Below, piece after piece: positions 6,061 through 28,258 of a stretch of DNA of 32,000 nucleotides (within the stretch, counting starts at the first letter, position 1; the number at the start of each line of letters is the position of its first letter). The notes under the pieces were generated by a model. It was not told the DNA's origin and ran no database searches. It saw only the letters and a list, made by a program, of their open reading frames with translations. The DNA comes from an uncultured bacterium (GTDB lineage: Bacteria; Babelota; Babeliae; Babelales; Vermiphilaceae). The stretch is taken from positions 126,873 through 158,872 of the forward strand of contig OY969699.1 of NCBI GenBank assembly GCA_963702025.1, written 5' to 3'. A program made the translations under genes and the position numbers.

Positions 6061-6183
6061 TTTAGCTACCAAAAAAATGACTCTCCCGCTCGCCCTGAGC
6101 TTGTCGAAGGGAGCGAGCTTACCTGATGCCGCTCGAATGGTTCGACAAGCTCACCACGAGCGGTTTTTTTAGTTTTTGGCTAA
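6061..6183. repeat. MITE-like palindromic repeat, copy A
   Basis: Inner imperfect inverted repeat CCGCTCGCCCTGAGCTTGTCGAAGGGAGCGAGC (from 6086) against GCTCGAATGGTTCGACAAGCTCACCACGAGCGG (to 6163). Outer inverted repeat TTTAGCTACCAAAAA / TTTTTGGCTAAA. It shares the core TTCGACAAGCTCA..GAGCGG with 14262-14490 and CACCACGAGCGG with 13252-13496. Confidence 0.7.
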
Positions 6184-8230: not shown

Positions 8231-8267
8231 GAGCCTCTCCTTAGTAGATAACAACCTACTTGTGCTT

Positions 8268-8297
8268 AAAATACGAAAAGCAGCGCAAGAAAATCAA
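8268..8297 (-). promoter_or_regulatory. candidate promoter of OMP gene 7454-8230
   Basis: The minus strand reads TTGATT-18 nt-TATTTT. Three other OMP paralogs have the same -35 hexamer and spacing. Confidence 0.4.
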
Positions 8298-8317
8298 GAA
8301 GAGTTTTTTGCTCAAAA

Positions 8318-8346
8318 AAGAAGGCACCAAAATTGGTGCCTTCTTG
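8318..8346 (-). terminator. rho-independent terminator of OMP gene 8366-9226
   Basis: AAGAAGGCACCAA / TTGGTGCCTTCTT hairpin, followed on the minus strand by TTTTTT. Confidence 0.7.
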
Positions 8347-8365
8347 AATAGTTTTTCTAAATTGA

Positions 8366-9226: not shown

Positions 9227-9271
9227 ATTTTCTCCCTTAGAATTGGTTAAATGATACTGCAACCACGCCTA

Positions 9272-9301
9272 AGATTACCCTGAATTGTCAGAAAAAATCA
9301 A
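9272..9301 (-). promoter_or_regulatory. candidate promoter of OMP gene 8366-9226
   Basis: The minus strand reads TTGATT-18 nt-TAATCT, followed by the conserved leader GGTTGCAGTAT. Hexamers, spacing and leader are identical upstream of 10396-11244. Confidence 0.45.
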
Positions 9302-9351
9302 GCTTTATTTAAATTCTACCACCGTACTGGATTTTTTTCTGACAATTTCAG
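9280..9351. repeat. 20-22-bp inverted repeat flanking a ~30-nt loop, overlapping the promoter above
   Basis: CTGAATTGTCAGAAAAAATC (9280-9299) against GATTTTTTTCTGACAATTTCAG (9330-9351). It sits directly after the stop of 9360-10238 and contains the -35 of the next gene. Confidence 0.6.
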
Positions 9352-9359
9352 TAGAGAAA

Positions 9360-10238
9360 TTAAAATGTATAACGAGCCCCTACCGTGATTGGGAAGCGCA
9401 ATTCCGTACCGATAGAACCAAATATGAGATTATTAATACCAGGAACCACTAACGGTGCTGGATTGCAACCGGCATTCTGACCAAATGCGATAGTATCGCC
9501 ACTTCTTGGTCCACAATTTGCAACTACTTCGCCAACGATCATTAGATTCCAACAATTGCACATGCAAACATCTAAGCCAATGCTTAAACCACCGCTTACT
9601 TTAGTATTTTTATCAAAAAAAGGTTGATCGGTAACAAACGCAACCGCCGCTGCCGGAGGTATAGCGAGAGTAGAGCTGAATTTTATACGTTGATGATGCA
9701 TTGCACCAACTTTTGCGCCAAGAAACACCGAATATCTGTCGCACCAGCGATCAAAGAAATATTGGAATCCAAGGTAGCCATCGTAGAGCTTATACTTGTG
9801 CAGATCAAAGACCAATGTTGATGCCGGTGATTGAAGAGTTTGGAACGATTCATCATGTTTGCCGCTGGCTTGAACATAATTAAATTCAGCATAAATACGA
9901 ATATTATCAGAAATTGCATAACCAACTTGACCACCAATGGTCCATGGCACATGGAATAATTTAAAGAAACGAGGTGTTTTTAAAAATTGAACCACCGGAT
10001 TAGCGCCGGCAACGTTGGTGCATTGAATGGCAGAAATGTAACCACGGTGTTCCCACAATATCGGCACCACACCACCATGAACTTGAAGATCGAAAGCGCC
10101 ACACGCCAACGGAATCTCAGAACAAGTGTAGCCACAACAAACCGGTTCACATTCCCGGCAATCAGAATCGGCAAGAAGAGGGGCAGCAAAAAAAAGCGCC
10201 AGCGCTAAAATACTGCTTTTATACATTGCAAACTTCAT
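9360..10238 (-). CDS. cysteine-rich beta-barrel outer-membrane protein (porin-like)
   Basis: AAGGAG RBS. Signal peptide MKFAMYKSSILALALFFAAPLLA. Cys cluster DCRECEPVCCGYTCSEIPLACGAFD. Motif RWCDR. C-terminal LRFPITVGARYTF. Confidence 0.85.
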   Translation of the reverse strand: MKFAMYKSSILALALFFAAPLLADSDCRECEPVCCGYTCSEIPLACGAFDLQVHGGVVPILWEHRGYISAIQCTNVAGANPVVQFLKTPRFFKLFHVPWTIGGQVGYAISDNIRIYAEFNYVQASGKHDESFQTLQSPASTLVFDLHKYKLYDGYLGFQYFFDRWCDRYSVFLGAKVGAMHHQRIKFSSTLAIPPAAAVAFVTDQPFFDKNTKVSGGLSIGLDVCMCNCWNLMIVGEVVANCGPRSGDTIAFGQNAGCNPAPLVVPGINNLIFGSIGTELRFPITVGARYTF

Positions 10239-10284
10239 ACAATCTCCTTAATAAGGTTTTTATCTCTTTTTGAGTAGCATTTTA

Positions 10285-10314
10285 ATACTAGCTTCATTAC
10301 CAAAAAAAAATCAA
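10285..10314 (-). promoter_or_regulatory. candidate promoter of OMP gene 9360-10238
   Basis: The minus strand reads TTGATT-18 nt-TAGTAT. Confidence 0.35.
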
Positions 10315-10337
10315 GTCTTAAAAAAATTTGTTCAAAA

Positions 10338-10373
10338 ACAAAAAAAAGGCATTGAATTTCTCAATGCCTTTTT
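10338..10373 (-). terminator. terminator hairpin after OMP gene 10396-11244
   Basis: AAGGCATTGA (10346-10355) pairs with TCAATGCCTT (10361-10370). The A-run on the plus strand becomes the T-run on the minus strand. Confidence 0.7.
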
Positions 10374-10395
10374 AGTTTTTGTTGGCAATTAGATT

Positions 10396-11244
10396 TTAGA
10401 AGCTATATCTGATTGCCGCAGTTACCGGAAAGCGAAGCTCGTTGCCAACGCTACCTACAACCAATTGCGTAATGAGAAGTCCAGTTGCCACGGTAGCCAC
10501 AGGACCAACAGATCTTGGACCACATGAGCCAACTACTTCACCAGTTACTACAAATGACCAGTTGCCACAGAAGCAAATATCAAAACCAACGTTAGCGCCG
10601 CCGCTGATTACCGTATTGCTACGATATACATTTTGGTCTGTGAACGGGGTGGTGTTACCGCTAGCAAAATTGAAATCATAGTTCAATCTTTTGTGATGTG
10701 TTAAACCAACTTTACCACCAAGGAAGAAGGAAACACGATCACACCAGCGATCCCAATAGTAACGAGCACCGGCATATGCATCAAATAATTTATATTTTCT
10801 TGCATCACCAAAAGTGAATGTTGAGCCATCTTCAGCTAAGATTCCGACATTATTTTTGTGATTTGCTTGTGAGTAGTTAAACTCTAAATACACACGAGTG
10901 TTGTCTGACATCGCATAACCAACTTGACCACCAACGATCCATGGAATTCTGTATAAGTGGCTGAATTTTGGTGTTTCAAAATAGCTAATCAATGGAGTGG
11001 ATGCTGAGCAATTCAACGCTAACCAATTGCCTCTATTGCGCCAGAGAATTGGGTTTACGCCACCTTGCACTTGCAAGTCCCATGCGCCGCAATACAACGG
11101 ATTGCATCCGCATTCGTAGCACGAAGATTCACAACATTGTGAATCACGAGATCCCCCATCATCCTGCCATGCATTCGCCTTGCTACCTAGCAAAGACAAA
11201 AGCAGAATAAGTGAGAGATGTTTTGCAGTAAGAAGTTTTTTCAT
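10396..11244 (-). CDS. cysteine-rich beta-barrel outer-membrane protein (porin-like)
   Basis: Signal peptide MKKLLTAKHLSLILLLSLLGSKANA. The N-terminal block CCESSCYECGCNPLYCGAWDLQVQGGVNPILWRNR is identical to 8366-9226. C-terminal LRFPVTAAIRYSF. Confidence 0.85.
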   Translation of the reverse strand: MKKLLTAKHLSLILLLSLLGSKANAWQDDGGSRDSQCCESSCYECGCNPLYCGAWDLQVQGGVNPILWRNRGNWLALNCSASTPLISYFETPKFSHLYRIPWIVGGQVGYAMSDNTRVYLEFNYSQANHKNNVGILAEDGSTFTFGDARKYKLFDAYAGARYYWDRWCDRVSFFLGGKVGLTHHKRLNYDFNFASGNTTPFTDQNVYRSNTVISGGANVGFDICFCGNWSFVVTGEVVGSCGPRSVGPVATVATGLLITQLVVGSVGNELRFPVTAAIRYSF

Positions 11245-11286
11245 ATTTACCCTTTTTTTTAAAGTGTTAATACTGCAACCGACTAT

Positions 11287-11316
11287 AGATTACTCCGAAG
11301 AATAAAAAAAAATCAA
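11287..11316 (-). promoter_or_regulatory. candidate promoter of OMP gene 10396-11244
   Basis: The minus strand reads TTGATT-18 nt-TAATCT plus the leader GGTTGCAGTAT, as at 9272-9301. Confidence 0.45.
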
Positions 11317-11329
11317 GAGTCAAATTAAA

Positions 11330-11369
11330 AAAAAGTAACCCAGATGCTGTTCTTGCCAACATCTGGGTT
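11330..11369 (-). terminator. terminator hairpin after OMP gene 11393-12301
   Basis: AACCCAGATG (11337-11346) pairs with CATCTGGGTT (11360-11369). The minus strand continues with a T-run (plus-strand AAAAAAAA at 11327-11334). Confidence 0.6.
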
Positions 11370-11392
11370 GTAACAAATACTTTATTTACGCA

Positions 11393-12301
11393 TTAAAAGC
11401 TGTATTTCAAGCCTGCGGTAATTGGGAAGAAAACTTCCGTGCCGATCCGGCCGACAACTAAATTGGTCGGTGAGAAATTTGGCAGAATACTCGCACAAGG
11501 ATTTAAGTTGCCAATATCTGAATTTGAACGCGGTCCACACGTAGCAACCGCTTCAGCGGTAAATACAACTGAAAAATTACAGCCCAAGCACCATTCAAAT
11601 CCGATATTTGCGCCGCCCGCTACTGAATTACTTTTATAGAAGAATGGAACACAATTTAATACAAGCGGAGTTTGTATTGTGCATTTCGTGGATGCTATGT
11701 TAATACGCGCATTCGTTTCTTTTCTATGCAAGAATCCGAATTTGCCGCCAAAGAAAAATGCAAAATCATTGCAACCACAATTTATTTCCCAATAATAGCG
11801 TGCACCCAAATACACATCATAAACTTTATAGCGACTCGGATGTATATTCACCGTTACAACATCATTTGGTGTTGCCGCAACGCCAAGTAAAGTGAAATTA
11901 CGGCCCGAGGCTTGTCGGTAATTAAATTCAATATATGTTTCAAAATCATTCGTTATAGCATAACCAATGTGGCCGCCAACGTACCAAGGGGTCTTGAACA
12001 ACTTTTTAAATCGAGGCATTTTGAATAAAGGAATAATTGATTGATTAAAATTAGGAATACTCAGTGCGTTACATGAAATCGCTGAAAAAATTCCGCGATC
12101 TGTCCATATAGTAGGGGCTACGCCACCCTGAATCTGAAAATCAATGGCTCCACAGTTTAACGGATTGCCACAGTCATATGCTTGATCACAGCACTGCTCT
12201 TCAGGGCAACAATCATCAGAACTTCTACCGAAGGTAAAATAGCTACAACTCGCTAAATAACAGAGTAAAAAAAGACTTTTACGACTCAAAACGTTTCTCA
12301 T
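11393..12301 (-). CDS. cysteine-rich beta-barrel outer-membrane protein (most divergent tandem member)
   Basis: I chose the ATG at 12301 (AAGGA 7 nt upstream) over the TTG at 12325. Cys cluster DDCCPEEQCCDQAYDCGNPLNCGAID. C-terminal VFFPITAGLKYSF. Confidence 0.8.
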   Translation of the reverse strand: MRNVLSRKSLFLLCYLASCSYFTFGRSSDDCCPEEQCCDQAYDCGNPLNCGAIDFQIQGGVAPTIWTDRGIFSAISCNALSIPNFNQSIIPLFKMPRFKKLFKTPWYVGGHIGYAITNDFETYIEFNYRQASGRNFTLLGVAATPNDVVTVNIHPSRYKVYDVYLGARYYWEINCGCNDFAFFFGGKFGFLHRKETNARINIASTKCTIQTPLVLNCVPFFYKSNSVAGGANIGFEWCLGCNFSVVFTAEAVATCGPRSNSDIGNLNPCASILPNFSPTNLVVGRIGTEVFFPITAGLKYSF

Positions 12302-12431
12302 TGGCAATCCTTTTTTTGAAAACAATATTCAACAAAATTAGCCTAGGCATAAAAATATGAAATTTGCAAGATCTTGAAAATTTGCATTAAAAAATTATAT
12401 TTAAATCCCGCCGTAAAAGGGAAGAATTTTT

Positions 12432-13251: not shown

Positions 13252-13496
13252 TCGAGCTAAAAAACTAGAGATACAATTGAAAGGCTGCTCGTGGTGAGTG
13301 ATTGCGAAGCAATCGTATCGAACCATGCGGCCTAAAAATCATAAGATATTATGAATTACTTTTATATATTTTAAAAGGATGCCCTTATTAAAAATGATTG
13401 AAACCCTCTGATAAGCCCGCATGGTTCGATACGCAGCCTGCGGCTGCACTCACCACGAGCGGGCTTTATGATTAACTTTCACAATTCTTAGCTCGA
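13252..13496. repeat. large MITE-like inverted repeat, copy B
   Basis: Outer arms TCGAGCTAA (13252-13260) / TTAGCTCGA (13488-13496). Core arms GCTCGTGGTGAGTG...CGTATCGAACCATGCGG (13283-13332) against CCGCATGGTTCGATACG...CACTCACCACGAGC (13415-13464). AT-rich ~82-nt centre. Each arm carries its own mini-palindrome (ATTGCGAAGCAAT; CAGCCTGCGGCTG). Confidence 0.7.
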
Positions 13497-13532
13497 ATTA
13501 GAGTAATATGAATATACTTAATTTAAAAGATC

Positions 13533-14210
13533 ATGATACAAATAACCTCAAGAGAAATCCTTTTCGCTCTTCTCAAAAAGCATCTTCCAGAAGATCCCAT
13601 AATTATTGAAGCGGGTTCATTCAATGGTAAAGATACCCTGCGCTTGGCCGCTTTTTGGCCCACATCAATAATTCACGCATTCGAACCGGTGCCAGAAATC
13701 TTTGATGAATTGGTGCGCACTACCCGTTTAAATAACAATATCATTAGATATCCGGTAGCACTCAGTGATACAAATGGTGAAAAAGCCTTTTTTGTTGCAG
13801 AACATCCCAAAAGACCGGGAAAAATATGCCAGGCAGGGAGTCTACTCAAACCAAAAGATCGATTAAACGTTTCGCCTATAACTTATCCCAAAACCATGCT
13901 AGTAAAAACATTAACTCTTGATACCTGGGCTAAGCAGTATGGAGTTGATCATGTCGATTTTATCTGGCTCGATTTACAAGGGCATGAATTGGCAGTTTTG
14001 AAAAACGGACATCATACTTTATCAACAACAAAAGCTCTCTATCTTGAAGTGAATTTTATTGAAGCCTATGAAAATCAAACAAATTATCTTCAATGTACTG
14101 ATTGGTTATATCAAAACAACTTTATTCCCGTTGCAAAAGATTTCATCGATGAAAACAAGTGGTTTTTTGGCAATATTTTATGGATAAATACTCAACTTCT
14201 GTACAAATGA
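13533..14210 (+). CDS. FkbM-family SAM-dependent methyltransferase
   Basis: IIIEAGSFNGKDTLRLA...IHAFEPVPEIFDEL...ALSDTNGEKAFFV...LDTW...IDFIWLDLQGHEL is the characteristic FkbM (TIGR01444-like) pattern. Confidence 0.8.
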   Translation: MIQITSREILFALLKKHLPEDPIIIEAGSFNGKDTLRLAAFWPTSIIHAFEPVPEIFDELVRTTRLNNNIIRYPVALSDTNGEKAFFVAEHPKRPGKICQAGSLLKPKDRLNVSPITYPKTMLVKTLTLDTWAKQYGVDHVDFIWLDLQGHELAVLKNGHHTLSTTKALYLEVNFIEAYENQTNYLQCTDWLYQNNFIPVAKDFIDENKWFFGNILWINTQLLYK

Positions 14211-14261
14211 AGCACCCAACCGCTCAAAAGCAGTTGTATCGCATTGGTATTCCGCAAAGAA

Positions 14262-14490
14262 AAAAAGCTTCATTCCTTATCGCCGTTCGTTTCCCAGCCT
14301 TCGCTAATTCCGTTCGTGCTGACCTCTCGACTACGCTCAAGACTAAAGGCCCTTAGCTTCCTGTGCCCGGCGTCCTTCGACAAGCTCAGGATGAGCGGAA
14401 GGATGCGTTTACTCCCGAGTGAAAGTCGAGGGACTTGGCGAAGACGGGTCGAAGGATCGAAACGAGCAATAATAATTTTCGGATAAGTTT
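14262..14490. repeat. MITE-like palindromic repeat, copy C1
   Basis: Imperfect inverted arms CTTATCGCCGTTCGTTTCCCAGCCTTCG... (from 14276) against ...CGAAGGATCGAAACGAGC...GATAAG (to 14487). The central core CCTTCGACAAGCTCAGGATGAGCGG is related to copy A. It generates spurious ORFs on both strands. Confidence 0.7.
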
Positions 14491-14567
14491 TTCCTGCCAG
14501 AACGTGCATAAATACACGAAAAAACTCATTTTTTTGTTTTTTTTGTTGCATCCATTATCCAAAATCT

Positions 14568-14602
14568 TGTATATACATAGTATCTGAAATTTTGTATATA
14601 CA
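14568..14602. promoter_or_regulatory. two perfect 10-bp palindromes TGTATATACA (operator-like), 25 bp centre to centre
   Basis: TGTATATACA occurs at 14568-14577 and 14593-14602. A related 9+9 palindrome ATTGTATAT-GA-ATATACAAT (14817-14836) is centred on the start codon of the downstream gene. Confidence 0.45.
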
Positions 14603-14676
14603 TTTTATATGATTAATTTTTAAAAAAAGAATGGTAATGGATCAACAAAATGAATAAAAACATAAACGATAGGAGC

Positions 14677-14698
14677 CACACACACACACACACACACA
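14677..14698. repeat. (CA)11 dinucleotide microsatellite
   Basis: Direct read CACACACACACACACACACACA. It lies ~125 nt upstream of the ATG at 14824. The duplicate unit carries (CA)8. Confidence 0.95.
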
Positions 14699-14823
14699 AA
14701 GGCTTTTTCAATGTCCCATAATCTCTATAAACACTATAATACCACTTGTTTTGATATTATCTGCGACCAACAACTACTACTACTCATTAATTATTTTTCT
14801 AACCTCATAAAAAAGGATTGTAT

Positions 14824-16278
14824 ATGAATATACAATGTAGGTTTTTAATAAAACCTTTTTCTCTTTCGCTGTTATTGATTGCATCAAGTTATGCCGATGA
14901 AATTGATTTACGTGCAGTAGATCAATTTAGAAAGTGCCAGAAGGATAACTGTTCAAGAGTTGCACTAAGCGCTCAGCTCACGTTTGGTAGTAATTATCCT
15001 TCAGCACAAACCTTTCCATCTATTTCAGCAACCGGAGACCAAGTATATGTGGTATATAATAATAATGGACTTTATACCCCTACATTACTTGCTGCACAAC
15101 TATTTGATAATGTTAACGGACAATTAGTTTCTGCGCAAACACTCCTGTGTGACCCAAACTATCCCAATCCATGGATGGGGTTCGCATCAGCAGATTTTAG
15201 CCTATTTTCTGTCCTTGATGGTAGTCTCGGGACAACATCGCTTCCGGCACGAATTCGTATTCTTGATTCAAACTTTAATCAAGTAGGTCAACGGATTTTT
15301 TCATCTTATCAAGGCGACTTTTTGGGTGTGAATCCTGCTGGTGGATTTTTTGCGGGTGGATCATTTTCAGAAGATAACCATTATGTTGTGATATCTACCA
15401 GTATTTCTAATACGCCTCCAAACGCACAAAGTATGTTAGTGGTAATGGATGCTACTAATCCTTCACTTCCCACTGTAGCGCAAACTGTAATCACCGGATT
15501 TCCAGTTTTTTTCGGCCCATATCTGTTTACTCTGACTGATAACAATGGCAATAAGAATCTGTATATTCAATATACTGTCTCCAATGGGACACCCACGCGA
15601 AATTTTATCCTATTCAATTTTTATGAACCACCCTTTTATAGCCAAGTGTATCAAGTTAATCTGACTGCGGGCACCATTACTTTAGTTGCTCAACAGCCAT
15701 TGCCTAAATTTGCTGGACCCGCTGTCCAAGTACGCGCTGGCGGCAAAGACGCACTCATTTGCCATGGCGGGTACTGCGCCCTAAACCCGAGTGCACCATC
15801 TTTTTATGCTAATCCTATTCCTTTTCAAGAATCAGTTTTACCCGGTGATTACGCCGAATCACGCGTATTTCTCTTTAATGGCACTGCCTTAAACTTAGTG
15901 GTTAAGGAAGCGGTAAATTGCTGTAATCGAACTCTCCCTTATCCCCCAAGCAATGGCTGCTCATATCTGATTGGGCAAAATCAAGATCTTCTAGTAGCGG
16001 GTTTCCCAAATGTAACCTCAGATAATCAGGAATTTTGGTGCTTTGCTGATCTTCGCCAAGGTCCAAATGGGCTTGAGTTCCGAGGAGTTAATTTGCCTAA
16101 CCAAGATATGATAACCGCCATTTCAGTATTCAGCCAAGATGGCAATTGGCTCTTTCGTGCAGGATACTTTGGATATGGCAATCAAAATCCAGAAACACCA
16201 TTTGATGATATATATGGCCTTAACAATCTCTTGCTCTTTAAAGTATACTCAGCACCATACACCCCAATTTGTAACTAA
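14824..16278 (+). CDS. secreted ~484-aa protein of unknown function (possibly beta-propeller/LVIVD-like), variant 1
   Basis: ATG at 14824 with AAGGA 6 nt upstream (the track start at 14818 is TTG). Signal peptide MNIQCRFLIKPFSLSLLLIASSYA. The repetitive strand-like segments and SMLVVMDATNPSLPTVAQT resemble an LVIVD repeat. Several Cys pairs (CQKDNC, NCCN, GC). Confidence 0.7.
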   Translation: MNIQCRFLIKPFSLSLLLIASSYADEIDLRAVDQFRKCQKDNCSRVALSAQLTFGSNYPSAQTFPSISATGDQVYVVYNNNGLYTPTLLAAQLFDNVNGQLVSAQTLLCDPNYPNPWMGFASADFSLFSVLDGSLGTTSLPARIRILDSNFNQVGQRIFSSYQGDFLGVNPAGGFFAGGSFSEDNHYVVISTSISNTPPNAQSMLVVMDATNPSLPTVAQTVITGFPVFFGPYLFTLTDNNGNKNLYIQYTVSNGTPTRNFILFNFYEPPFYSQVYQVNLTAGTITLVAQQPLPKFAGPAVQVRAGGKDALICHGGYCALNPSAPSFYANPIPFQESVLPGDYAESRVFLFNGTALNLVVKEAVNCCNRTLPYPPSNGCSYLIGQNQDLLVAGFPNVTSDNQEFWCFADLRQGPNGLEFRGVNLPNQDMITAISVFSQDGNWLFRAGYFGYGNQNPETPFDDIYGLNNLLLFKVYSAPYTPICN

Positions 16279-16296
16279 TAAAAAATAATTGATACC

Positions 16297-16317
16297 TGGC
16301 GCCTGAAAAAGGCGCCA
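16297..16317 (+). other. GC-rich intercistronic hairpin between the secreted-protein gene and the OMP gene
   Basis: TGGCGCC-TGAAAAA-GGCGCCA. No clear T-run follows, so it is more likely an attenuator or RNA-stability element than a full terminator. It is conserved at 20075-20095. Confidence 0.5.
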
Positions 16318-16335
16318 ATTTAATCAGGAGATTAT

Positions 16336-17184
16336 ATGAAATCGTTAAATCTACGTTATCTATTTTTGACACTTGCTCTTGCTTCATTCGGCTCAGCACA
16401 GGCAGATTATGATGATGGTCGCAATGCAGATTGTTGCAAAATAGATAATTGCTATGAATGTGGATGCAATCCACTCTATAGTTGCGCGTGGGATATTGCA
16501 GTGCAAGCGGGCGTTTGCCCAATCAGATGGACAGGTCGCGGCCACTGGAGTGTGCTTGAAAATGGTGCCGATGTTAATCTTTTCAGAACACCAAATTTTA
16601 GCCACTTGTATCGCCTTCCTTGGATAGTTGGCGGCCAAGTTGGCTACGCTTGGAGCGATAACGTTCGTCTTTATTTAGAATTTGATTATTTGCAAGCAAG
16701 CCGTAAAAACCGTAACAACGCTTTTAATGAATCTGCTTCATCAACAGTGCTTGATATTTGCGTTGGAAAATATAAAGCATTTGAATTTTATGTTGGTGGT
16801 CGATATTACTTTGATCGTTGGTGCGATCGTTATTCGTTCTTCTTAGGCGGTAAAATTGGGTTAATTAGTCATCGTAAAGTTCATTTTACGGGCACAATAA
16901 CTTACAACTCATATATTTTGGCACCGTCATTAGTAGATACTGAAACACCCCTCTTTAGAAGCAAAACGCAGGTGAGCGGCGGCGTTAATGGTGGCATTGA
17001 TATCTGCTTTGGTGGTAATTGGTCCTTTGTGATTACTGGTGAAGTAGTGGCCAATAGAGGGCCTCGTGGTCACTCAATTCCGTTAACGGGAAATCCTTTA
17101 GTTACTGCAACGAGCCTTTCAATCGGCAAAGCAGGCACGGAATTGCTTTTTCCAGTTACCGCCGGCATCAGATATAGCTTTTAA
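16336..17184 (+). CDS. cysteine-rich beta-barrel outer-membrane protein (copy 1 of duplicated gene)
   Basis: AGGAG RBS. Signal peptide MKSLNLRYLFLTLALASFGSAQA. Cys cluster DCCKIDNCYECGCNPLYSCAWD. Motif RWCDR. C-terminal LLFPVTAGIRYSF. It differs from 20114-20962 at only four N-terminal residues. Confidence 0.85.
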   Translation: MKSLNLRYLFLTLALASFGSAQADYDDGRNADCCKIDNCYECGCNPLYSCAWDIAVQAGVCPIRWTGRGHWSVLENGADVNLFRTPNFSHLYRLPWIVGGQVGYAWSDNVRLYLEFDYLQASRKNRNNAFNESASSTVLDICVGKYKAFEFYVGGRYYFDRWCDRYSFFLGGKIGLISHRKVHFTGTITYNSYILAPSLVDTETPLFRSKTQVSGGVNGGIDICFGGNWSFVITGEVVANRGPRGHSIPLTGNPLVTATSLSIGKAGTELLFPVTAGIRYSF

Positions 17185-17207
17185 AAATATGCTGGTTTAA
17201 AGGTAAA

Positions 17208-17257
17208 TTAATCCGTTGATTGATACTCTTGTAGCATCTTACGGCAACCGCAATTGA
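17208..17257 (+). pseudogene. relic of the 3' end of a GMC-oxidoreductase paralog
   Basis: TTAATCCGTTGATTGATACTCTTGTAGCATCTTACGG aligns with 30568-30604, the 3' end of the GMC gene (TTAATCCTTTGGTTGATGCTCTTATAGCTACTTACGG). In frame it reads NPLIDTLVASYGNRN* against NPLVDALIATYGS*. An AAGGCCTT-type terminator follows, as it does after the intact gene. Confidence 0.55.
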
Positions 17258-17285
17258 ACGTAATTTCATTTTTATTATCCCAAAA

Positions 17286-17317
17286 AAGGCCTTGTTAACA
17301 ACAAGGCCTTTTGATTT
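17286..17317 (+). terminator. terminator hairpin upstream of ribD
   Basis: AAGGCCTTGTT-AAC-AACAAGGCCTT followed by TTTTGATTT. Duplicated at 21064-21095. Confidence 0.65.
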
Positions 17318-17400
17318 ATAAAAGTGCAGAACTTTTCTTTACTTTTTTTCCAAATAATCCTAGTATCCCTTCATTCAGGAGTAAAGAAAAAGGGTGTGAT

Positions 17401-18147
17401 ATGGATCATGCATATTACATGAAAAAAGTTTTTGAGCTTGCCAAACAAGGAATCGGGTTAGTGAGCCCTAATCCACTTGTTGGTTCGCTGATCGTTAAAG
17501 ATAGCCAAATAATTGGTGCAGGATTTCATGAGCGATATGGTCAATTTCATGCAGAGTTGAATGCAATTGTATCTGCAAAGCAACCACTAAAAGGTGCAAC
17601 CCTTTATTGCAATCTTGAGCCCTGTTGCCATACTAATAAGCAAACGCCACCGTGCGCGCAACGTATAATTAAAGAAGGCATTTCACGAGTGGTGATTGCC
17701 AATAGAGATCCCAATCCAGAAGTAAATGGCGGAGGCATCGCCCTGCTCAAACAAATGGGCATAGAAGTGATCGAGAATATTTGCCAGGAGGAAGGGGAAT
17801 TGCTCAATGAAGTTTTTTTTACTTTTCACCGCAAAAAAAGACCATTTATTCATCTTAAATATGCACAGACTCTAGATGGTAATATTGCCTGCTCAAGTGG
17901 TGATTCAAAGTGGATCACTCATGAAAATGCGCGCAAAAAAGCACATGAGATGCGATTAAAATATGATGCAATTTTGATCGGTGCGGGAACTTTAGTTGCC
18001 GATAATCCTGCGCTTACTATCCGCTTTATTGAATCAGAAAAAAAATGCCCGAAAAAAGCTTCATTCCTTATCGCCGTTCGTTTCCCAGCCTTCGCTAATT
18101 CCGTTCGTGCTGACCTCTCGACTACGCTCAAGACTAAAGGCCCTTAG
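17401..18147 (+). pseudogene. ribD: truncated ribD copy (deaminase domain plus start of reductase domain) fused to repeat-derived codons
   Basis: Identical to the full-length ribD (21179-) through ...RFIESEKKCP at 18050. It then reads into MITE copy C2 (KKASFLIAVRFPAF...) and stops at 18147. Confidence 0.8.
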
Positions 18148-18281
18148 CTTCCTGTGCCCGGCGTCCTTCGACAAGCTCAGGATGAGCGGAAGGATGCGTT
18201 TACTCCCGAGTGAAAGTCGAGGGACTTGGCGAAGACGGGTCGAAGGATCGAAACGAGCAATAATAATTTTCGGATAAGTTT
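18053..18281. repeat. MITE-like palindromic repeat, copy C2
   Basis: Identical to 14262-14490. Confidence 0.7.
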
Positions 18282-18467
18282 TTCCTGCCAGAACGTGCAT
18301 AAATACACGAAAAAACTCATTTTTTTGTTTTTTTTGTTGCATCCATTATCCAAAATCTTGTATATACATAGTATCTGAAATTTTGTATATACATTTTATA
18401 TGATTAATTTTTAAAAAAAGAATGGTAATGGATCAACAAAATGAATAAAAACATAAACGATAGGAGC

Positions 18468-18483
18468 CACACACACACACACA
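18468..18483. repeat. (CA)8 dinucleotide microsatellite
   Basis: Direct read. It is the only internal length difference, apart from one A, between the otherwise identical 5' parts of the two duplication units. Confidence 0.95.
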
Positions 18484-18608
18484 AAGGCTTTTTCAATGTC
18501 CCATAATCTCTATAAACACTATAATACCACTTGTTTTGATATTATCTGCGACCAACAACTACTACTACTCATTAATTATTTTTCTAACCTCATAAAAAAG
18601 GATTGTAT

Positions 18609-20060
18609 ATGAATATACAATGTAGGTTTTTAATAAAACCTTTTTCTCTTTCGCTGTTATTGATTGCATCAAGTTATGCCGATGAAATTGATCCAGTCGC
18701 GTTAAACCAATTTAGAAAATGCCAGACGAATAACTGTTCAAGAGTTGCACTAGACAGTGAACTCACATTTAGTCTTTCTCGACCTTCTTTCATATCCTAT
18801 CCGTCTATTTCAGCAAATGGGGACCAAGTATTCATACAATATGCTAATAATGCTTTTTATACCCCTACATTACTACTTGCAGAATTATTTGATAATGTTG
18901 ACGGACAATTAGTTTCCGCTCAAACACTCAACATCGACCCAAATTATCCCAATCCATGGATTGGGTATGCATCGCCAGATTTTACACGTTTCTCCGTCAT
19001 TGATGGTAGTATCGGTACTGGATTGCTTCCGGCACGTATTCGTATTTTTGATTCAAACTTTAATCAAGTGGGCGAACGAATCTTCTCGGCTCTTCAATCA
19101 TATCTTAGTGGCGTTACTTCCGGTGGACTTGTTTGGGGTGGGGAATTTTCAGAAGATAATCATTATGTTGTAGTAACTTATAGTGTTGCCGTTTCCGGTC
19201 CAACAGTAACAAGTATGATAGTGGTGCTGGATGCTACTGATCCTTCACTTCCTATTGTAGCGCAAACCCAAATTACCGGATTTCAAAATGTTTATTCTCC
19301 GTTTCTGTTTACTCTGACTGATAACAATGGCAACCAGAATCTATACATTCAATTTTGTCTCTGCAATGGAGTGCCTCAGCGAATTGAATATTTCTTCGAT
19401 ACCGCATATATACCGCCATTTGCTAGCCAAGTTTATCAAGTTAATCTGAATGCTGGCACAATTACTTTAGTTGCCCAACAGCCATTACCTAAATTTGCCG
19501 AAGCAGATATCCTCGTACGTCCTGGCGGCAAAGATGTGATCATTGCCCATGGTGGATGGTGCTGCTTATTCCCGAATCAAATAAGTATTTATGATACTAT
19601 TCCCCCTCTCACCTCATTTTTACCTAATGATAACAGCGAAGCACGCGTATTTCTGTTTGATGGAAGTAACTTAAACTTAGTGGTTAAGGAATCAGTAAAT
19701 TGTTGTAATTGCACTTGCATTTATCCGCCAGGCAATGGCTGCTCATATTGTTTTGCACAAAATACAGTATTTGAACTAAATGGTAACCCAGCGGAGCGCT
19801 ACACTCAGCCGGAATTTTGGCTCTTTGCAGATCTTCGTCAAGGTCCAAATGGCCTTGAGTTCCGAGGAATGAATTTGCCTAAGTCGGATATGTATACCGC
19901 CGTTCGGAGATTCAGCCAGGATGGCAATTGGTTTCTTCGCGCGGGAGCACATGGATACATCAATCAGGACCCAACAATGCCATATGTTGATGCCAATGGT
20001 ATTCGCAATATCTTGCTCTACCAAGTATCCTCAGCAGCGTATACCCCAATTTGTAATTAG
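18609..20060 (+). CDS. secreted ~483-aa protein of unknown function, variant 2
   Basis: Same start context and identical signal peptide as 14824-16278. The mature part is roughly two-thirds identical by eye, with conserved islands (FSEDNHYVV, LFTLTDNNGN, QVYQVNL.AGTITLVAQQPLPKFA, FADLRQGPNGLEFRG, FSQDGNW, YTPICN). Confidence 0.7.
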   Translation: MNIQCRFLIKPFSLSLLLIASSYADEIDPVALNQFRKCQTNNCSRVALDSELTFSLSRPSFISYPSISANGDQVFIQYANNAFYTPTLLLAELFDNVDGQLVSAQTLNIDPNYPNPWIGYASPDFTRFSVIDGSIGTGLLPARIRIFDSNFNQVGERIFSALQSYLSGVTSGGLVWGGEFSEDNHYVVVTYSVAVSGPTVTSMIVVLDATDPSLPIVAQTQITGFQNVYSPFLFTLTDNNGNQNLYIQFCLCNGVPQRIEYFFDTAYIPPFASQVYQVNLNAGTITLVAQQPLPKFAEADILVRPGGKDVIIAHGGWCCLFPNQISIYDTIPPLTSFLPNDNSEARVFLFDGSNLNLVVKESVNCCNCTCIYPPGNGCSYCFAQNTVFELNGNPAERYTQPEFWLFADLRQGPNGLEFRGMNLPKSDMYTAVRRFSQDGNWFLRAGAHGYINQDPTMPYVDANGIRNILLYQVSSAAYTPICN

Positions 20061-20113
20061 TAATAATTGATACCTGGCGCCTGAAAAAGGCGCCAACCTA
20101 ATCAGGAGATCAT

Positions 20114-20962
20114 ATGAAATCGTTAAATCTACGTTATCTATTTTTGACACTTGCTCTTGCTTCATTCGGGTCAGCACAGGCAAATTATGATGATGATCGC
20201 AGTGCCGATTGTTGCAAAATGGATAATTGCTATGAATGTGGATGCAATCCACTCTATAGTTGCGCGTGGGATATTGCAGTGCAAGCGGGCGTTTGCCCAA
20301 TCAGATGGACAGGTCGCGGCCACTGGAGTGTGCTTGAAAATGGTGCCGATGTTAATCTTTTCAGAACACCAAATTTTAGCCACTTGTATCGCCTTCCTTG
20401 GATAGTTGGCGGCCAAGTTGGCTACGCTTGGAGCGATAACGTTCGTCTTTATTTAGAATTTGATTATTTGCAAGCAAGCCGTAAAAACCGTAACAACGCT
20501 TTTAATGAATCTGCTTCATCAACAGTGCTTGATATTTGCGTTGGAAAATATAAAGCATTTGAATTTTATGTTGGTGGTCGATATTACTTTGATCGTTGGT
20601 GCGATCGTTATTCGTTCTTCTTAGGCGGTAAAATTGGGTTAATTAGTCATCGTAAAGTTCATTTTACGGGCACAATAACTTACAACTCATATATTTTGGC
20701 ACCGTCATTAGTAGATACTGAAACACCCCTCTTTAGAAGCAAAACGCAGGTGAGCGGCGGCGTTAATGGTGGCATTGATATCTGCTTTGGTGGTAATTGG
20801 TCCTTTGTGATTACTGGTGAAGTAGTGGCCAATAGAGGGCCTCGTGGTCACTCAATTCCGTTAACGGGAAATCCTTTAGTTACTGCAACGAGCCTTTCAA
20901 TCGGCAAAGCAGGCACGGAATTGCTTTTTCCAGTTACCGCCGGCATCAGATATAGCTTTTAA
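20114..20962 (+). CDS. cysteine-rich beta-barrel outer-membrane protein (copy 2 of duplicated gene)
   Basis: As for 16336-17184. The nucleotide sequence is identical from ~20223 onward. Confidence 0.85.
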   Translation: MKSLNLRYLFLTLALASFGSAQANYDDDRSADCCKMDNCYECGCNPLYSCAWDIAVQAGVCPIRWTGRGHWSVLENGADVNLFRTPNFSHLYRLPWIVGGQVGYAWSDNVRLYLEFDYLQASRKNRNNAFNESASSTVLDICVGKYKAFEFYVGGRYYFDRWCDRYSFFLGGKIGLISHRKVHFTGTITYNSYILAPSLVDTETPLFRSKTQVSGGVNGGIDICFGGNWSFVITGEVVANRGPRGHSIPLTGNPLVTATSLSIGKAGTELLFPVTAGIRYSF

Positions 20963-20985
20963 AAATATGCTGGTTTAAAGGTAAA

Positions 20986-21035
20986 TTAATCCGTTGATTG
21001 ATACTCTTGTAGCATCTTACGGCAACCGCAATTGA
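20986..21035 (+). pseudogene. relic of GMC-oxidoreductase 3' end (duplicate copy)
   Basis: Identical to 17208-17257. Confidence 0.55.
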
Positions 21036-21178
21036 ACGTAATTTCATTTTTATTATCCCAAAAAAGGCCTTGTTAACAACAAGGCCTTTTGATTTATAAA
21101 AGTGCAGAACTTTTCTTTACTTTTTTTCCAAATAATCCTAGTATCCCTTCATTCAGGAGTAAAGAAAAAGGGTGTGAT

Positions 21179-22321
21179 ATGGATCATGCATATTACATGA
21201 AAAAAGTTTTTGAGCTTGCCAAACAAGGAATCGGGTTAGTGAGCCCTAATCCACTTGTTGGTTCGCTGATCGTTAAAGATAGCCAAATAATTGGTGCAGG
21301 ATTTCATGAGCGATATGGTCAATTTCATGCAGAGTTGAATGCAATTGTATCTGCAAAGCAACCACTAAAAGGTGCAACCCTTTATTGCAATCTTGAGCCC
21401 TGTTGCCATACTAATAAGCAAACGCCACCGTGCGCGCAACGTATAATTAAAGAAGGCATTTCACGAGTGGTGATTGCCAATAGAGATCCCAATCCAGAAG
21501 TAAATGGCGGAGGCATCGCCCTGCTCAAACAAATGGGCATAGAAGTGATCGAGAATATTTGCCAGGAGGAAGGGGAATTGCTCAATGAAGTTTTTTTTAC
21601 TTTTCACCGCAAAAAAAGACCATTTATTCATCTTAAATATGCACAGACTCTAGATGGTAATATTGCCTGCTCAAGTGGTGATTCAAAGTGGATCACTCAT
21701 GAAAATGCGCGCAAAAAAGCACATGAGATGCGATTAAAATATGATGCAATTTTGATCGGTGCGGGAACTTTAGTTGCCGATAATCCTGCGCTTACTATCC
21801 GCTTTATTGAATCAGAAAAAAAATGCCCGCGGCGCATAGTGCTGGGATCACTGGGATTTATTGAACCACATAATCTCGCAGTCACTGATGAATATCGGCA
21901 CAAAACAATTTTAGTGACCAGTGACTCTGATTATTGGTATCATGAAAAAAAAGCTGAAAAATTCCAAAAAGATGGCATTACCATTGTGCGCGTTGATGTT
22001 GATAATGGACTTCTTAATTTGTCTCAAGTTTGCCAAAAAATGGCAGAATTAAAAATCACATCAATACTGGTTGAAGGCGGCAGCAAGATTCTTACCTCTT
22101 TTATACTAGAAAAATTATTTGATCGTATTTCCATTTTTATTGCGCCCAAAATAATTGGCTCGGGTATAAATGCCATTGATGAGCTTGGCATTCAAAAAAT
22201 GGCTGATGCATTTACTTTTGAGAAAACAAGTTTTGAAATTATTGATGATGTAATTCATTTTTCAGGAAAGCCTGCTTACGACCGGCTCGGGATGAGAAAC
22301 AATGTTCACCGGATTAATTAG
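21179..22321 (+). CDS. ribD: bifunctional riboflavin biosynthesis protein RibD (pyrimidine deaminase / uracil reductase)
   Basis: I chose the ATG at 21179 (MDHAYYMKKVFELAKQG). The track start at 21089 is TTG and lies inside the terminator. Deaminase zinc motifs HAE and CNLEPCCH. Reductase part KYAQTLDG...LVEGG. Confidence 0.9.
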   Translation: MDHAYYMKKVFELAKQGIGLVSPNPLVGSLIVKDSQIIGAGFHERYGQFHAELNAIVSAKQPLKGATLYCNLEPCCHTNKQTPPCAQRIIKEGISRVVIANRDPNPEVNGGGIALLKQMGIEVIENICQEEGELLNEVFFTFHRKKRPFIHLKYAQTLDGNIACSSGDSKWITHENARKKAHEMRLKYDAILIGAGTLVADNPALTIRFIESEKKCPRRIVLGSLGFIEPHNLAVTDEYRHKTILVTSDSDYWYHEKKAEKFQKDGITIVRVDVDNGLLNLSQVCQKMAELKITSILVEGGSKILTSFILEKLFDRISIFIAPKIIGSGINAIDELGIQKMADAFTFEKTSFEIIDDVIHFSGKPAYDRLGMRNNVHRIN

Positions 22322-25640: not shown

Positions 25641-26012
25641 ATGGCACTTGGCATAGATTTAAGAAAACGAGTAATAGCTGCAGTAGATGATGGAATGCGT
25701 ATAACTGATGTGGCTAAATTATTCAAAGTTGGGCGAAACGCAATTTATAACTGGCTTAAGTTGCGCCAAGAAGTGAATAGCCTTGCGCCAAAATCCGGCT
25801 ATCAGAATGGACACAGTCATAAAATTACTGATTGGGAAAAATTTAAAGAATTTGCAAAAGAAAACCAACATTTTACTTCATTAAAAATGGCGATTGAGTG
25901 GGAAAAAATTACAAATGTTTGCATATCGGATATCACGATACAACGAGCACTTAAAAAAATTGGTTACACATCAAAAAAAAACTTTTGGTTACATCGAAGC
26001 GAATGCAGATAA
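25641..26012 (+). CDS. IS630-family transposase, N-terminal HTH part (orfA)
   Basis: AAGGAG RBS. The helix-turn-helix-like GIDLRKRVIAAVDDGMRITDVAKLFKVGRNAIYNWLK is typical of IS630 transposase N-termini. The frame ends shortly after the A9 tract at 25973-25981. Confidence 0.75.
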   Translation: MALGIDLRKRVIAAVDDGMRITDVAKLFKVGRNAIYNWLKLRQEVNSLAPKSGYQNGHSHKITDWEKFKEFAKENQHFTSLKMAIEWEKITNVCISDITIQRALKKIGYTSKKNFWLHRSECR

Positions 26013-26523
26013 ACGCAAACAATTTTTAGAAGAAATAGAAAATATCGATCCTGCGCTCATTGTCTATTCTGATGAAACGGGAATCGACGATAATGAAGTG
26101 CCAAATGCTGGCTGGGCGCCAGAGGGCGAGCGATGCCACGCAATAAAAAAAGCTGAGAGAATAACGCGCTATAATATCACCGCTGCGCTGAATTTAAATT
26201 TATTATTTGCGCCATTTTTATTTGAAGGATATTCAACTGCTGATACTTATGAAACTTACGTGGAACAAGTTTTAGCTCCTGCATTAAAGCCTGGAATGGT
26301 TGTTGTAATCGATAATGCCAGCTTCCACAAATCTAAAAAAGTAGTTGAACTCATTGAAGCAGTTGGTTGTAGAATCATTTTTTTACCACCATATTCTCCA
26401 GATTTTAACCCAATAGAACATCGATGGGCTACTGTCAAAAATGCGATTCGAAAGGCCGCAGAGGGAATAAAAGATTTTTATGAGGCCGCAGTCAAAACAT
26501 TGGGAGAAATGTGTGAGGCCTAG
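25894..26523 (+). CDS. IS630-family transposase, DDE catalytic part (orfB, reached only by a frameshift at the A9 tract)
   Basis: DETGID, VIDNASFHKS and LPPYSPDFNPIEHRWATVK form a DD(34-35)E-type triad context. The continuous protein ...IGYTSKK(K)TFGYIEANADKRKQF needs a +1 shift (or A8/A11 in the transcript) at 25973-25981. Confidence 0.75.
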   Translation: MSGKKLQMFAYRISRYNEHLKKLVTHQKKTFGYIEANADKRKQFLEEIENIDPALIVYSDETGIDDNEVPNAGWAPEGERCHAIKKAERITRYNITAALNLNLLFAPFLFEGYSTADTYETYVEQVLAPALKPGMVVVIDNASFHKSKKVVELIEAVGCRIIFLPPYSPDFNPIEHRWATVKNAIRKAAEGIKDFYEAAVKTLGEMCEA

Positions 26524-26731: not shown

Positions 26732-28258
26732 ATGCTAAAAATACCAATACCAAAAAAAATATGCCTTAGCTTGGCGCTTTTGCTTTCAAGCGCTTTAGCT
26801 CTGGCCGATTATTGTCCGGATTACGAGTGCTGCGCACCAGACGAAATTCAATGCCCGAGCAACATTGTTCACCCCAAAACATTTTTCAGTCCACGCCAAA
26901 TCACCTTTGATGCAACATACGAGCTTGCGCTTACCAACTATGATGTTTACCATCCCTTAGATTGTGGTGAATGCGGTTATGGATTGCATCTTTATGCAAC
27001 GCCTTTTTATGAGCAATCAAAAAAATCATGTCGCCTTGCTCGTTATTTCTTGCCGGATGGCAAATGCGCAATTAACGTGAAACAAGATGGCACCGGTGAC
27101 GTTGATCCATTATGGCTCGGTTTGGTGGGAGTTCCGGGAAGTCCGTACAGTTCAATTTTTGGTCTAAAGCCACAACGCAAAGCATACGGCGCTGTTTTTA
27201 ATGCACGTATTGATTTAGGCGCTTGGTCGGATTGCCTGTGCAATTATTGGATTTGGATCAATACTGCAGTTGTGCAGGCCAAACACAATATGCATGTGTG
27301 TGAAGTTCCGGCAACCCAAGATACGTGTGTTGCTGGTGCTGACATGTGTACGGCACTTAATAACCCTTCCTGGACCGCAGGAAAAATTGCTTGTGAATCA
27401 AGAAAAAGAACGGGCCTTGACGATATACAAATAAAACTTGGTTACGATTGGTATTATTGCGGATGCGATCAAGATAGCCACATTGCTCCCTACCTTATTG
27501 GCGGAATTCCGACCGGAAAACGACCAAAATCAGAATATTTATTTGAACCGTTAGTTGGCAGCAAGCATGGTAGCTTTGGCGCCGGTCTGAATGCTGACGC
27601 AAACATTTGGGCATGCAATGATGCATCAATTGTTTGGATGATGGATTTTAAATATCGGTATATTTTCAAAGCCCGTGAACGGCGCTCATTTGATCTATGC
27701 GCCAATGGAGATTGGTCACGGTATTTATTGCTGGCAAGTAGCACCGATCCAATAACACCGATTCCGGCGATTAATATTCTCACTACTGAGGTGCATGTTA
27801 CGCCACGCAGCGAAGTAAACTTCTGGACCGCGTTACATTACGCATACTGCAATTATGGCTTTGAATTTGGCTACAATCTCTGGTACCGTCAACGTGAAAA
27901 AGTACGATTAGATGTCCCTCCTGCAATTGCCAATCTGGGAATTTATGATCTTGCCGGTGCAGCAGTACTTAATCCCGTTTCAGCAAGCACGGCAAATATT
28001 TCCCAATCAATCGGTGGCAGCAATCCGGTGGTCAGCGATCCAACGTTTGTAACACTTACTCTGGCAAATCTCAATCTGGAATCCGCGGAACATCCCCGCG
28101 CGGTAACGCACAAAGTTTATGCGGGCGGAGATTATCGCTGCTGCTGGTGCCAAAACGAAGTATTGCTCGGCCTGGTTGGATCCTATGAATTTACCGGCAC
28201 TAAGCGCACTGCGCTGCAACAATGGGCAATCTTTGGAAAATTGGGCATTTCTTTTTAA
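26732..28258 (+). CDS. large cysteine-rich outer-membrane beta-barrel protein (508 aa)
   Basis: GGAGAGG RBS. Signal peptide ...LLLSSALALA. Cys cluster DYCPDYECCAPDEIQCP and many further Cys residues. Alternating aromatic/hydrophobic strands. C-terminal FGKLGISF with terminal Phe. Confidence 0.7.
   Translation: MLKIPIPKKICLSLALLLSSALALADYCPDYECCAPDEIQCPSNIVHPKTFFSPRQITFDATYELALTNYDVYHPLDCGECGYGLHLYATPFYEQSKKSCRLARYFLPDGKCAINVKQDGTGDVDPLWLGLVGVPGSPYSSIFGLKPQRKAYGAVFNARIDLGAWSDCLCNYWIWINTAVVQAKHNMHVCEVPATQDTCVAGADMCTALNNPSWTAGKIACESRKRTGLDDIQIKLGYDWYYCGCDQDSHIAPYLIGGIPTGKRPKSEYLFEPLVGSKHGSFGAGLNADANIWACNDASIVWMMDFKYRYIFKARERRSFDLCANGDWSRYLLLASSTDPITPIPAINILTTEVHVTPRSEVNFWTALHYAYCNYGFEFGYNLWYRQREKVRLDVPPAIANLGIYDLAGAAVLNPVSASTANISQSIGGSNPVVSDPTFVTLTLANLNLESAEHPRAVTHKVYAGGDYRCCWCQNEVLLGLVGSYEFTGTKRTALQQWAIFGKLGISF

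Follow-up and report, generated by a model that had tools for sequence, protein, structure and literature searches.

The duplicated locus

The stretch of DNA analysed here, referred to throughout as the window, comprises 32,000 nucleotides (nt) from an uncultured bacterium of the Vermiphilaceae (Babelota; assembly GCA_963702025.1, contig OY969699.1, positions 126,873 to 158,872 of the forward strand) and contains a head-to-tail pair of ~3.8-kb units in direct tandem. In each unit a gene for a secreted protein, predicted to adopt a beta-propeller fold, is followed by a gene for a putative outer-membrane protein (OMP) and then by ribD sequence, which is truncated in the first unit (ribD') and runs into the intact gene in the second (Table 1). 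This arrangement had been proposed from a reading of the sequence alone, and a gapless repeat search together with a MAFFT alignment confirms it. The two direct copies are connected by one novel junction (...ATGCCCG-AAAAAAGC...) at which at most 1 base is shared; the original prediction had placed the microhomology at no more than 1-2 nt and the measured value is 0-1 nt, which completes the structure expected of a tandem duplication. The DNA immediately outside the units is unrelated from one side to the other, and no long repeat is present at the ancestral end points. No third copy of the unit occurs in the window and no third propeller protein was found in the same chromosome. The proteins P0001 and P0002 and both OMPs are each represented by one contig per protein cluster, all from one assembly only, and a 36-mer spanning the junction is absent from the JGI metagenome contigs. 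Because ribD is intact in unit 2, no gene was destroyed by the duplication and the rib operon is preserved; the ribD' of unit 1 retains the deaminase domain in full and the reductase domain only in its first part.

Both units begin with an upstream region of ~560 nt that includes an element resembling a miniature inverted-repeat transposable element (MITE), two 25-nt repeats and a (CA)n tract, and both propeller copies are complete open reading frames (ORFs) whose upstream regions and ribosome-binding sites are identical. The window has no dinucleotide repeats other than the (CA)11 and (CA)8 tracts, and such a difference in repeat length between the copies is a structural mark of a phase-variable locus. 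The inventory first drawn up for the unit holds for the predicted secreted protein, the OMP, the 5' part of ribD, the (CA)n tract and the palindromes, and needs qualifying in two places, as the relic of a GMC oxidoreductase gene is only 37 nt long and the ends of the MITE-like element are undefined.

Table 1. Coordinates of the two units, of the segments of the identity mosaic and of the genes and elements within them. Positions count from the first nucleotide of the window; dS and dN are synonymous and nonsynonymous divergence; aa, amino acids.
Feature	Position	Strand	Description
Duplication unit 1	14261-18051	+	3,791 nt; upstream region, predicted beta-propeller allele 1, OMP gene, truncated ribD'
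Duplication unit 2	18052-21829	+	3,778 nt; end falls within intact ribD
Novel junction ATGCCCG-AAAAAAG	18045-18058	+	ribD codon 217 fused to unit start; 0-1 nt microhomology
Left identical flank, unit 1	14261-14907	+	647 nt; upstream region and first 28 codons including signal peptide; zero substitutions
Left identical flank, unit 2	18052-18692	+	Counterpart of 14261-14907
Diverged core, unit 1	14908-16283	+	73% nt identity to 18693-20061; dS 0.49, dN 0.28
Diverged core, unit 2	18693-20061	+	Counterpart of 14908-16283
Intermediate zone	16284-16443 (= 20062-20221)	+	9 substitutions (16319-16443), ~6% divergence; spacer and OMP codons 19-36
Right identical flank, unit 1	16444-18051	+	1,608 nt, zero differences
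Right identical flank, unit 2	20222-21829	+	Counterpart of 16444-18051
MITE-like imperfect palindromic element	14270-14490; copy 18061-18281	.	~220 nt; fold z -2.0; predicted, ends undefined
Two 25-nt direct repeats, each with palindrome TTGTATATACA	14556-14612; copy 18347-18403	+	Possible operator/promoter region
(CA)11	14677-14698	+	125 nt upstream of ATG, unit 1
(CA)8	18468-18483	+	Unit 2 counterpart of (CA)11
Predicted beta-propeller gene, allele 1	14824-16278	+	484 aa, predicted signal peptide, 11 Cys
Predicted beta-propeller gene, allele 2	18609-20060	+	483 aa, 14 Cys; 65% identical to allele 1
Cys-rich predicted small beta-barrel OMP gene, copy 1	16336-17184	+	282 aa
OMP gene, copy 2	20114-20962	+	4 aa changes relative to copy 1: D24N, G28D, N30S, I36M
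GMC oxidoreductase 3'-end relic	17207-17248; copy 20985-21026	+	Just downstream of OMP gene
Palindrome AAAAGGCCTTGTTAACAACAAGGCCTTTT	17284-17312; copy 21062-21090	.	Terminator-like; from repeat search
ribD' fusion ORF	17401-18147	+	217 ribD codons, in frame into MITE-like element
Intact ribD	21179-22321	+	First gene of ribD-ribE-ribBA-ribH operon

A mosaic of identity and divergence

Comparison of the two units in windows of 100 alignment columns gives 100% identity over the first ~650 nt, save for a 6-nt indel, then 66-83% as far as ~16283/20061, 94-97% for ~160 nt, and 100% from there to the end. Divergence is therefore confined to the core and the intermediate zone and is not spread evenly over the unit, in agreement with the pattern anticipated for this sliding-window comparison. 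The left ~650 bp had been described as identical apart from two changes in repeat length, and indeed its 647 nt hold a (CA)3 indel as the sole internal difference, with an A7/A6 ambiguity at its outermost end. The claim that the last ~1.6 kb are identical likewise stands, at 1,608 nt without a difference. Together the flanks carry 0 substitutions in 2,255 positions, the lengths of simple repeats being all that has changed. Between them lies the heavily substituted ~1.4-kb block with small indels that had been predicted, which holds 3 indel codons and has 73.1% identity across 1,371 codon-aligned columns.

The two boundaries of the core are of different kinds. At the 5' edge the first substitution falls at 14908/18693 and is followed by 7 differences within the next 10 nt, so that the sharp boundary originally described is real. 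This onset lies two codons past the predicted cleavage of the signal peptide (SYA, then DEID); the peptide itself, MNIQCRFLIKPFSLSLLLIASSYA followed by DE, is typical in its features as judged by eye. The 3' edge had been described as graded, and here the description fails, since divergence drops stepwise from 27% to ~6% to 0%. A 4-nt indel at 16280-16283 closes the core and is followed by 35 nt of identity before the substitutions of the intermediate zone begin. Six of these nine substitutions fall in OMP codons 19-36, where four of the six alter the amino acid. Identity tracts of 647 and 1,608 nt beside 27% divergence are longer than the overall divergence predicts; such tracts arise equally by gene conversion or by allelic import.

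Age of the parts and selection

The mature propeller region shows a dS of 0.49 and a dN of 0.28, and the dN/dS ratio, the calculation suggested for this region at the outset, is 0.58 (Nei-Gojobori), with no 60-codon window above 1 and a maximum of 0.81. Relative to the outgroup protein P0003 the two copies carry 39 and 38 unique amino-acid changes, and because these numbers are so nearly equal the locus is better read as two long-separated alleles than as one copy racing ahead of the other. The core substitutions comprise all 12 types without adenine or other base bias and are distributed over the codon positions as 131/105/124. Identical runs within the core reach 30 nt at most (shuffle p 0.14), no conversion patches were found inside the core, and the divergence is uniform. 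The split between the two cores is far older than that between the flanks, because dS is 0.49 in the core and 0 in the flanks, change is symmetric and divergence is uniform; the mosaic is therefore a product of recombination. Of the two explanations first offered for it, gene conversion or cassette replacement on the one hand and diversifying selection on the other, recombination is upheld by the contrast in dS and by the counts of 39 and 38, and selection acting alone after a recent duplication is rejected. The G+C content at third codon positions is 0.30 and 0.31 in the two cores, like that of the neighbouring genes, and on this composition neither core looks foreign to the lineage.

Nevertheless, the ratio of 0.58 is high when set against comparable pairs, which range over 0.13-0.30 among four arrayed propeller paralogues in a Parachlamydiales genome and stand at 0.21 for two OMPs and 0.18 for a pair of GMC genes in the window. 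By this comparison the propeller protein appears to evolve unusually fast, and the raised dN/dS suggests that diversifying selection contributes. The paralogues of the window are themselves old, with a dS of 0.69 for the GMC pair (first 420 codons) and of 1.3 for the OMP pair (whole genes), and neither pair has long identical flanks over the stretches compared.

The propeller family and its partner OMP

No Pfam or NCBIfam family matches the propeller protein, and ten remote homologues are likewise without a family. A word-indexed search of 5.8 billion proteins returned eight relatives, and a profile search of 1.84 billion cluster representatives returned 193. An AlphaFold model built from eight sequences is all-beta, with ~34 strands (predicted local distance difference test, pLDDT, 74; predicted template-modelling score, pTM, 0.81), and its best matches in the PDB are the generic beta-propellers eIF3i, YncE and WDR91, at a query-normalised template-modelling (TM) score of ~0.47. 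From this model we predict that the 484-amino-acid protein is a beta-propeller. Both propeller genes have a negative GC skew despite their position on the + strand, unlike their + strand neighbours.

Where genome context was available, the relatives belonged to a Parachlamydiales metagenome-assembled genome, to several metagenome genomes and to one genome labelled Verrucomicrobia; most of the named relatives are either chlamydial or from metagenome genomes, and by themselves these relatives would point to a chlamydia-like organism as the source of the window. In the Parachlamydiales genome (OY970065.1) the family forms adjacent arrays of four genes (locus L001, 8527-14290) and two genes (L003, 8684-11383), whose members have very similar 5' ends, and in one metagenome genome (L007, 6839-10768) two copies share one contig, ~1.4 kb apart. 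In the four-gene array divergence has local hot spots at alignment columns 420-480 and 780-840; the array adjoins a gene cluster of the O-antigen/lipopolysaccharide type. The closest relative, on a 2.2-kb Logan contig (L009), has a propeller gene of 53% identity followed directly by an OMP gene of 61% identity, and because the order is the same as in the window the propeller-OMP gene pair is conserved. These comparisons mark a Cys-rich beta-propeller family as fast-evolving and repeatedly amplified, and make it a candidate component of the envelope or of host interaction.

The 282-amino-acid partner has a signal peptide, a cysteine-rich N-terminus and the C-terminal sequence ...RYSF. Its match to OMP_b-brl (PF13505; E 1.3e-5) scores 25.9 bits, under the Pfam cut-off of 28.7, and its structural model (pLDDT 61) resembles the barrels of OmpA, OmpW, NspA and Pla, from which the protein is predicted to be a small outer-membrane beta-barrel. 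Five further paralogues are encoded on the - strand at 7454-12325, with 35-52% amino-acid identity to the duplicated OMP. A 50-nt run is identical in two non-adjacent members of this array (9048-9096 and 11057-11105; shuffle p<0.002) and may reflect a patch of gene conversion.

Origin of the mosaic

We propose, tentatively and at a little less than an even chance, a model in which a young illegitimate duplication was followed by the allelic replacement of ~1.5 kb in one of the two units. In the first step, ribD would have been joined recently to the base of a hairpin-forming repeat element, giving rise to the duplication; the join is read as illegitimate because the left breakpoint lies at the hairpin base, the right breakpoint lies inside ribD and the two have 0-1 nt of homology. 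In the second step, a ~1.5-kb patch in one unit, reaching from just past the signal peptide to OMP codon 36, would have been swapped by homologous recombination with a diverged allele, with the conserved signal-peptide and upstream sequence at one end and the conserved OMP gene at the other serving as anchors for the crossovers. The donor would probably have been a co-infecting related strain. The result would be two envelope-associated propeller variants that differ by 35%, linked to OMPs whose mature N-termini differ at four residues, with each copy placed behind its own identical promoter region and slippage-prone (CA)n tract. The direct repeats of 0.65 kb and 1.6 kb should then permit RecA to collapse the locus to either allele, or to expand it. 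Chlamydiae are known to recombine readily in co-infection, and natural C. trachomatis genomes have been called mosaic (PMC3703283).

Less probable, although a substantial competitor, is an old duplication of about the age of the core (dS ~0.5), in which frequent gene conversion has homogenised the flanks and the mature propeller region has escaped, at first through selection for difference and later because it had become too diverged to pair. The edges of the unit tell against this history and for a young duplication, as identity is perfect to its first and last base. A gene conversion tract must be flanked by homology at either end and so extends poorly to the outermost bases of a repeat, and the chance that 60 edge bases (30 per edge) would be free of differences at the divergence of the core is ~0.73^60 = 6e-9. 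A young duplication is favoured also because the useless ribD' fragment is still intact and in frame, where an old one would require a non-functional gene to have survived the timespan of dS 0.5 in a 1.6-Mb genome; because the only changes in the flanks are in the lengths of simple repeats, the fastest class of mutation; and because old tandem paralogues elsewhere in the window lack homogenised flanks and show one 50-nt patch only. An old duplication would furthermore need two separate flanks to be free of substitutions at once, and with direct repeats of 0.65 and 1.6 kb that are identical, one of the units should soon have been deleted.

Several observations nevertheless weigh against the young duplication with an imported allele. 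The sharp 5' and stepped 3' boundaries fit conversion tracts that were halted at heterology, the dN/dS of 0.58 exceeds the values of comparable paralogues two- to fourfold, the 50-nt identical run between other OMP paralogues suggests that conversion operates here, and the tandem arrays of the family in the Parachlamydiales genome consist of diverging copies whose 5' ends are very similar, all of which speak for an old duplication; mosaics of conserved and variable segments that are maintained by recombination are, moreover, known in tandem paralogue clusters (PMC2568036). Our model requires two events in place of one old event and ongoing conversion, and its donor allele is hypothetical, since each protein is present on a single contig. 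The edge argument is probabilistic, and heteroduplex can sometimes reach the end of homology. The zone of ~6% divergence beside identical flanks needs crossovers near the ends of the block or a donor that differed locally, and chlamydial crosses in vitro gave no duplications (PMC3703283). To these must be added whatever speaks for an artefact of assembly, in which single-copy alleles of two strains were strung in tandem, or for a duplication confined to a sub-population, namely that one assembly only holds these proteins, that the closest full-length relatives are metagenome-assembled genomes, so that the 1,596,033-bp chromosome may likewise stem from a mixed population, and that two alleles at one locus would also have the appearance of identical flanks around a diverged core. 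We consider this unlikely, as the tandem layout requires reads over a junction that offers an assembler no homology (0-1 nt), and allelic variation gives bubbles or extra contigs, not a new adjacency; ribD' is also a clean in-frame truncation, and the units differ in (CA)n length and OMP N-terminus as well as in the core.

The remaining histories fare less well. Two old adjacent paralogues might have been duplicated recently as a pair and then reduced to one per unit by two homeologous deletions, which would explain old cores within a young junction without an external donor and would accord with the adjacent arrays of 2-4 genes, or two copies ~1.4 kb apart, held by relatives. Such a history is nonetheless very improbable, given that it demands three events, with two crossovers at 73% identity falling exactly at gene ends, and that no trace of an inter-paralogue spacer is left. 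Least credible of all, and in effect refuted by the synonymous divergence, is a history without any recombination, in which diversifying selection or targeted hypermutation, such as that of a diversity-generating retroelement, would have altered the core once the unit had recently been duplicated. The raised dN/dS of 0.58 and the near-even codon positions would suit it, but the core dS of 0.49 against 0 in the flanks, the symmetric change in both copies, the presence of all 12 substitution types and of indels without adenine bias, and the lack of any 60-codon window with dN/dS above 1 would not. For a retroelement or hypermutation in particular, the substitution spectrum rules out such an origin, and the core is 1.4 kb long with indels. 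The variable region of a typical diversity-generating retroelement is about one tenth the length of such a block. Among the features of these retroelements, adenine bias is absent, and a reverse transcriptase scan covered only part of the ORFs in the window. Antigenic variation of the cassette type (pilE/pilS, vlsE or msp2) was also rejected, the locus having two complete copies only, with no promoterless silent cassettes and no further fragments in the window.

Comparison with known systems and implications

Duplication combined with a recombination mosaic at a surface-protein locus is a mechanism already well known in other bacteria. The closest described pattern is the tandem lpl cluster of S. 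aureus, in which conserved segments are the sites of recombination between variable ones and exchange both within and between genomes has been invoked (Tsuru & Kobayashi 2008, PMC2568036). In both cases tandem copies of a gene, for lpl one of host interaction, have near-identical segments beside strongly diverged ones, and the conserved unit starts in the 3' part of one copy, crosses the spacer and finishes in the 5' part of the following copy, which corresponds here to the right flank of unit 1 and the left flank of unit 2. The locus described here differs in having two units only, each with a further gene and part of a housekeeping gene, in that its conserved parts are the flanks and not a central region, and in being known from one genome.

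The babA/babB genes of H. pylori and the opa genes of Neisseria are OMP genes with identical ends and a divergent middle that are kept so by gene conversion. They share with the present locus the sharp boundaries between identical and diverged sequence in genes for envelope proteins, and simple-sequence repeats near the 5' end; they are, however, dispersed OMP paralogues in which conversion and phase variation have been shown experimentally, and the copies here are adjacent, encode a putative propeller of soluble type and are known from sequence. The heteroallelic merodiploids of S. pneumoniae are tandem duplications of donor and recipient alleles that form during genetic exchange (Johnston et al. 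2013, PMC3784515), and they too hold different alleles in tandem and are in principle unstable through their direct repeats. They measure 100-900 kb and arise during transformation by unequal crossing-over at pre-existing insertion sequence (IS) repeats, in contrast to the 3.8 kb and illegitimate junction found here. The exchange of the envelope antigen gene ompA between co-infecting strains of C. trachomatis also leaves a locally diverged block in a near-identical background (PMC3703283), although as a single-copy allelic replacement. No papers on chlamydial tandem duplications that stem from lateral transfer were found in a literature search.

Providing the duplication is real, it would show an envelope gene family early in its expansion, and recombination would have brought two old alleles next to each other in a lineage believed to have few opportunities for genetic exchange. 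That the locus is a working device for two-allele variation, with two expression units, a fast-evolving envelope propeller and a partner OMP whose N-terminus varies with it, we regard as quite unlikely. Were it so, the (CA)n tracts would set the expression of each unit independently, the population would switch among allele 1 only, allele 2 only, both and amplified states, and the identical flanks would be kept as a substrate for recombination.

Repeat elements and neighbouring genes

The junction had been placed at the left edge of the MITE-like element, and this stands as an approximation only, since the palindromic element starts within ~10-15 nt of the unit start and its ends are undefined from the window. 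No target-site duplication is visible at the junction and the outer arms of the element have no further copy in the window. A transposition origin of the duplication is unsupported, in view of the undefined ends and the absence of a visible target-site duplication. The core motif CGCTCG...GAGCTTGTCGAA / TTCGACAAGCTC...CGAGCG is common to the element of the unit and to two extra MITE-like elements at 6067-6182 and 13280-13467, one of which sits between the GT2 and fkbM genes, and it occurs in none of the relatives' loci that were compared. An IS630-like DDE_3 transposase at 25641-26523 is split over two overlapping ORFs and is perhaps frameshifted or decayed; a repeat search across the window revealed no repeat linking this region to the MITE-like elements. 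Within the 25-nt repeats and just beyond, a promoter-like match at 14584-14613 is weak and amounts to a consensus match only. No flavin mononucleotide (FMN) riboswitch was detected upstream of ribD (17150-17400, 20930-21180), nor did any other Rfam family match in the whole window.

The GMC relic is an 84% match (E 2e-5) to the last 14 codons of the GMC gene at 28277-30607, and hints that the propeller-OMP pair took the place of a GMC gene upstream of ribD. That gene and a second at 30740-32000, which exceeds the window end, are the tandem oxidoreductase paralogues used for comparison above and are 82% identical in amino acids; a 508-amino-acid ORF just upstream of the pair (26732-28258) has no Pfam match. 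On the other side of the locus, a metagenome contig (Ga0209624_10001074, L013, 6352-14112) has the glyA, OMP-array, GT2 and fkbM genes in common with the window and, beyond fkbM, unrelated genes where the window has propeller, OMP and ribD. Because of this difference beyond fkbM, the propeller-OMP-rib neighbourhood is specific to the lineage of the window. Gene orientation switches from - to + and the GC skew changes sign near the duplicated locus (~13300-16300). A duplicated replication origin was considered and rejected despite this switch, with 12 DnaA boxes found against 9.8 expected. Finally, the ORF at 2990-3673 encodes a eukaryote-like domain of the DOT1 histone methyltransferase type (Pfam E 9e-21), and on this sequence match its product could be a host-targeted effector.

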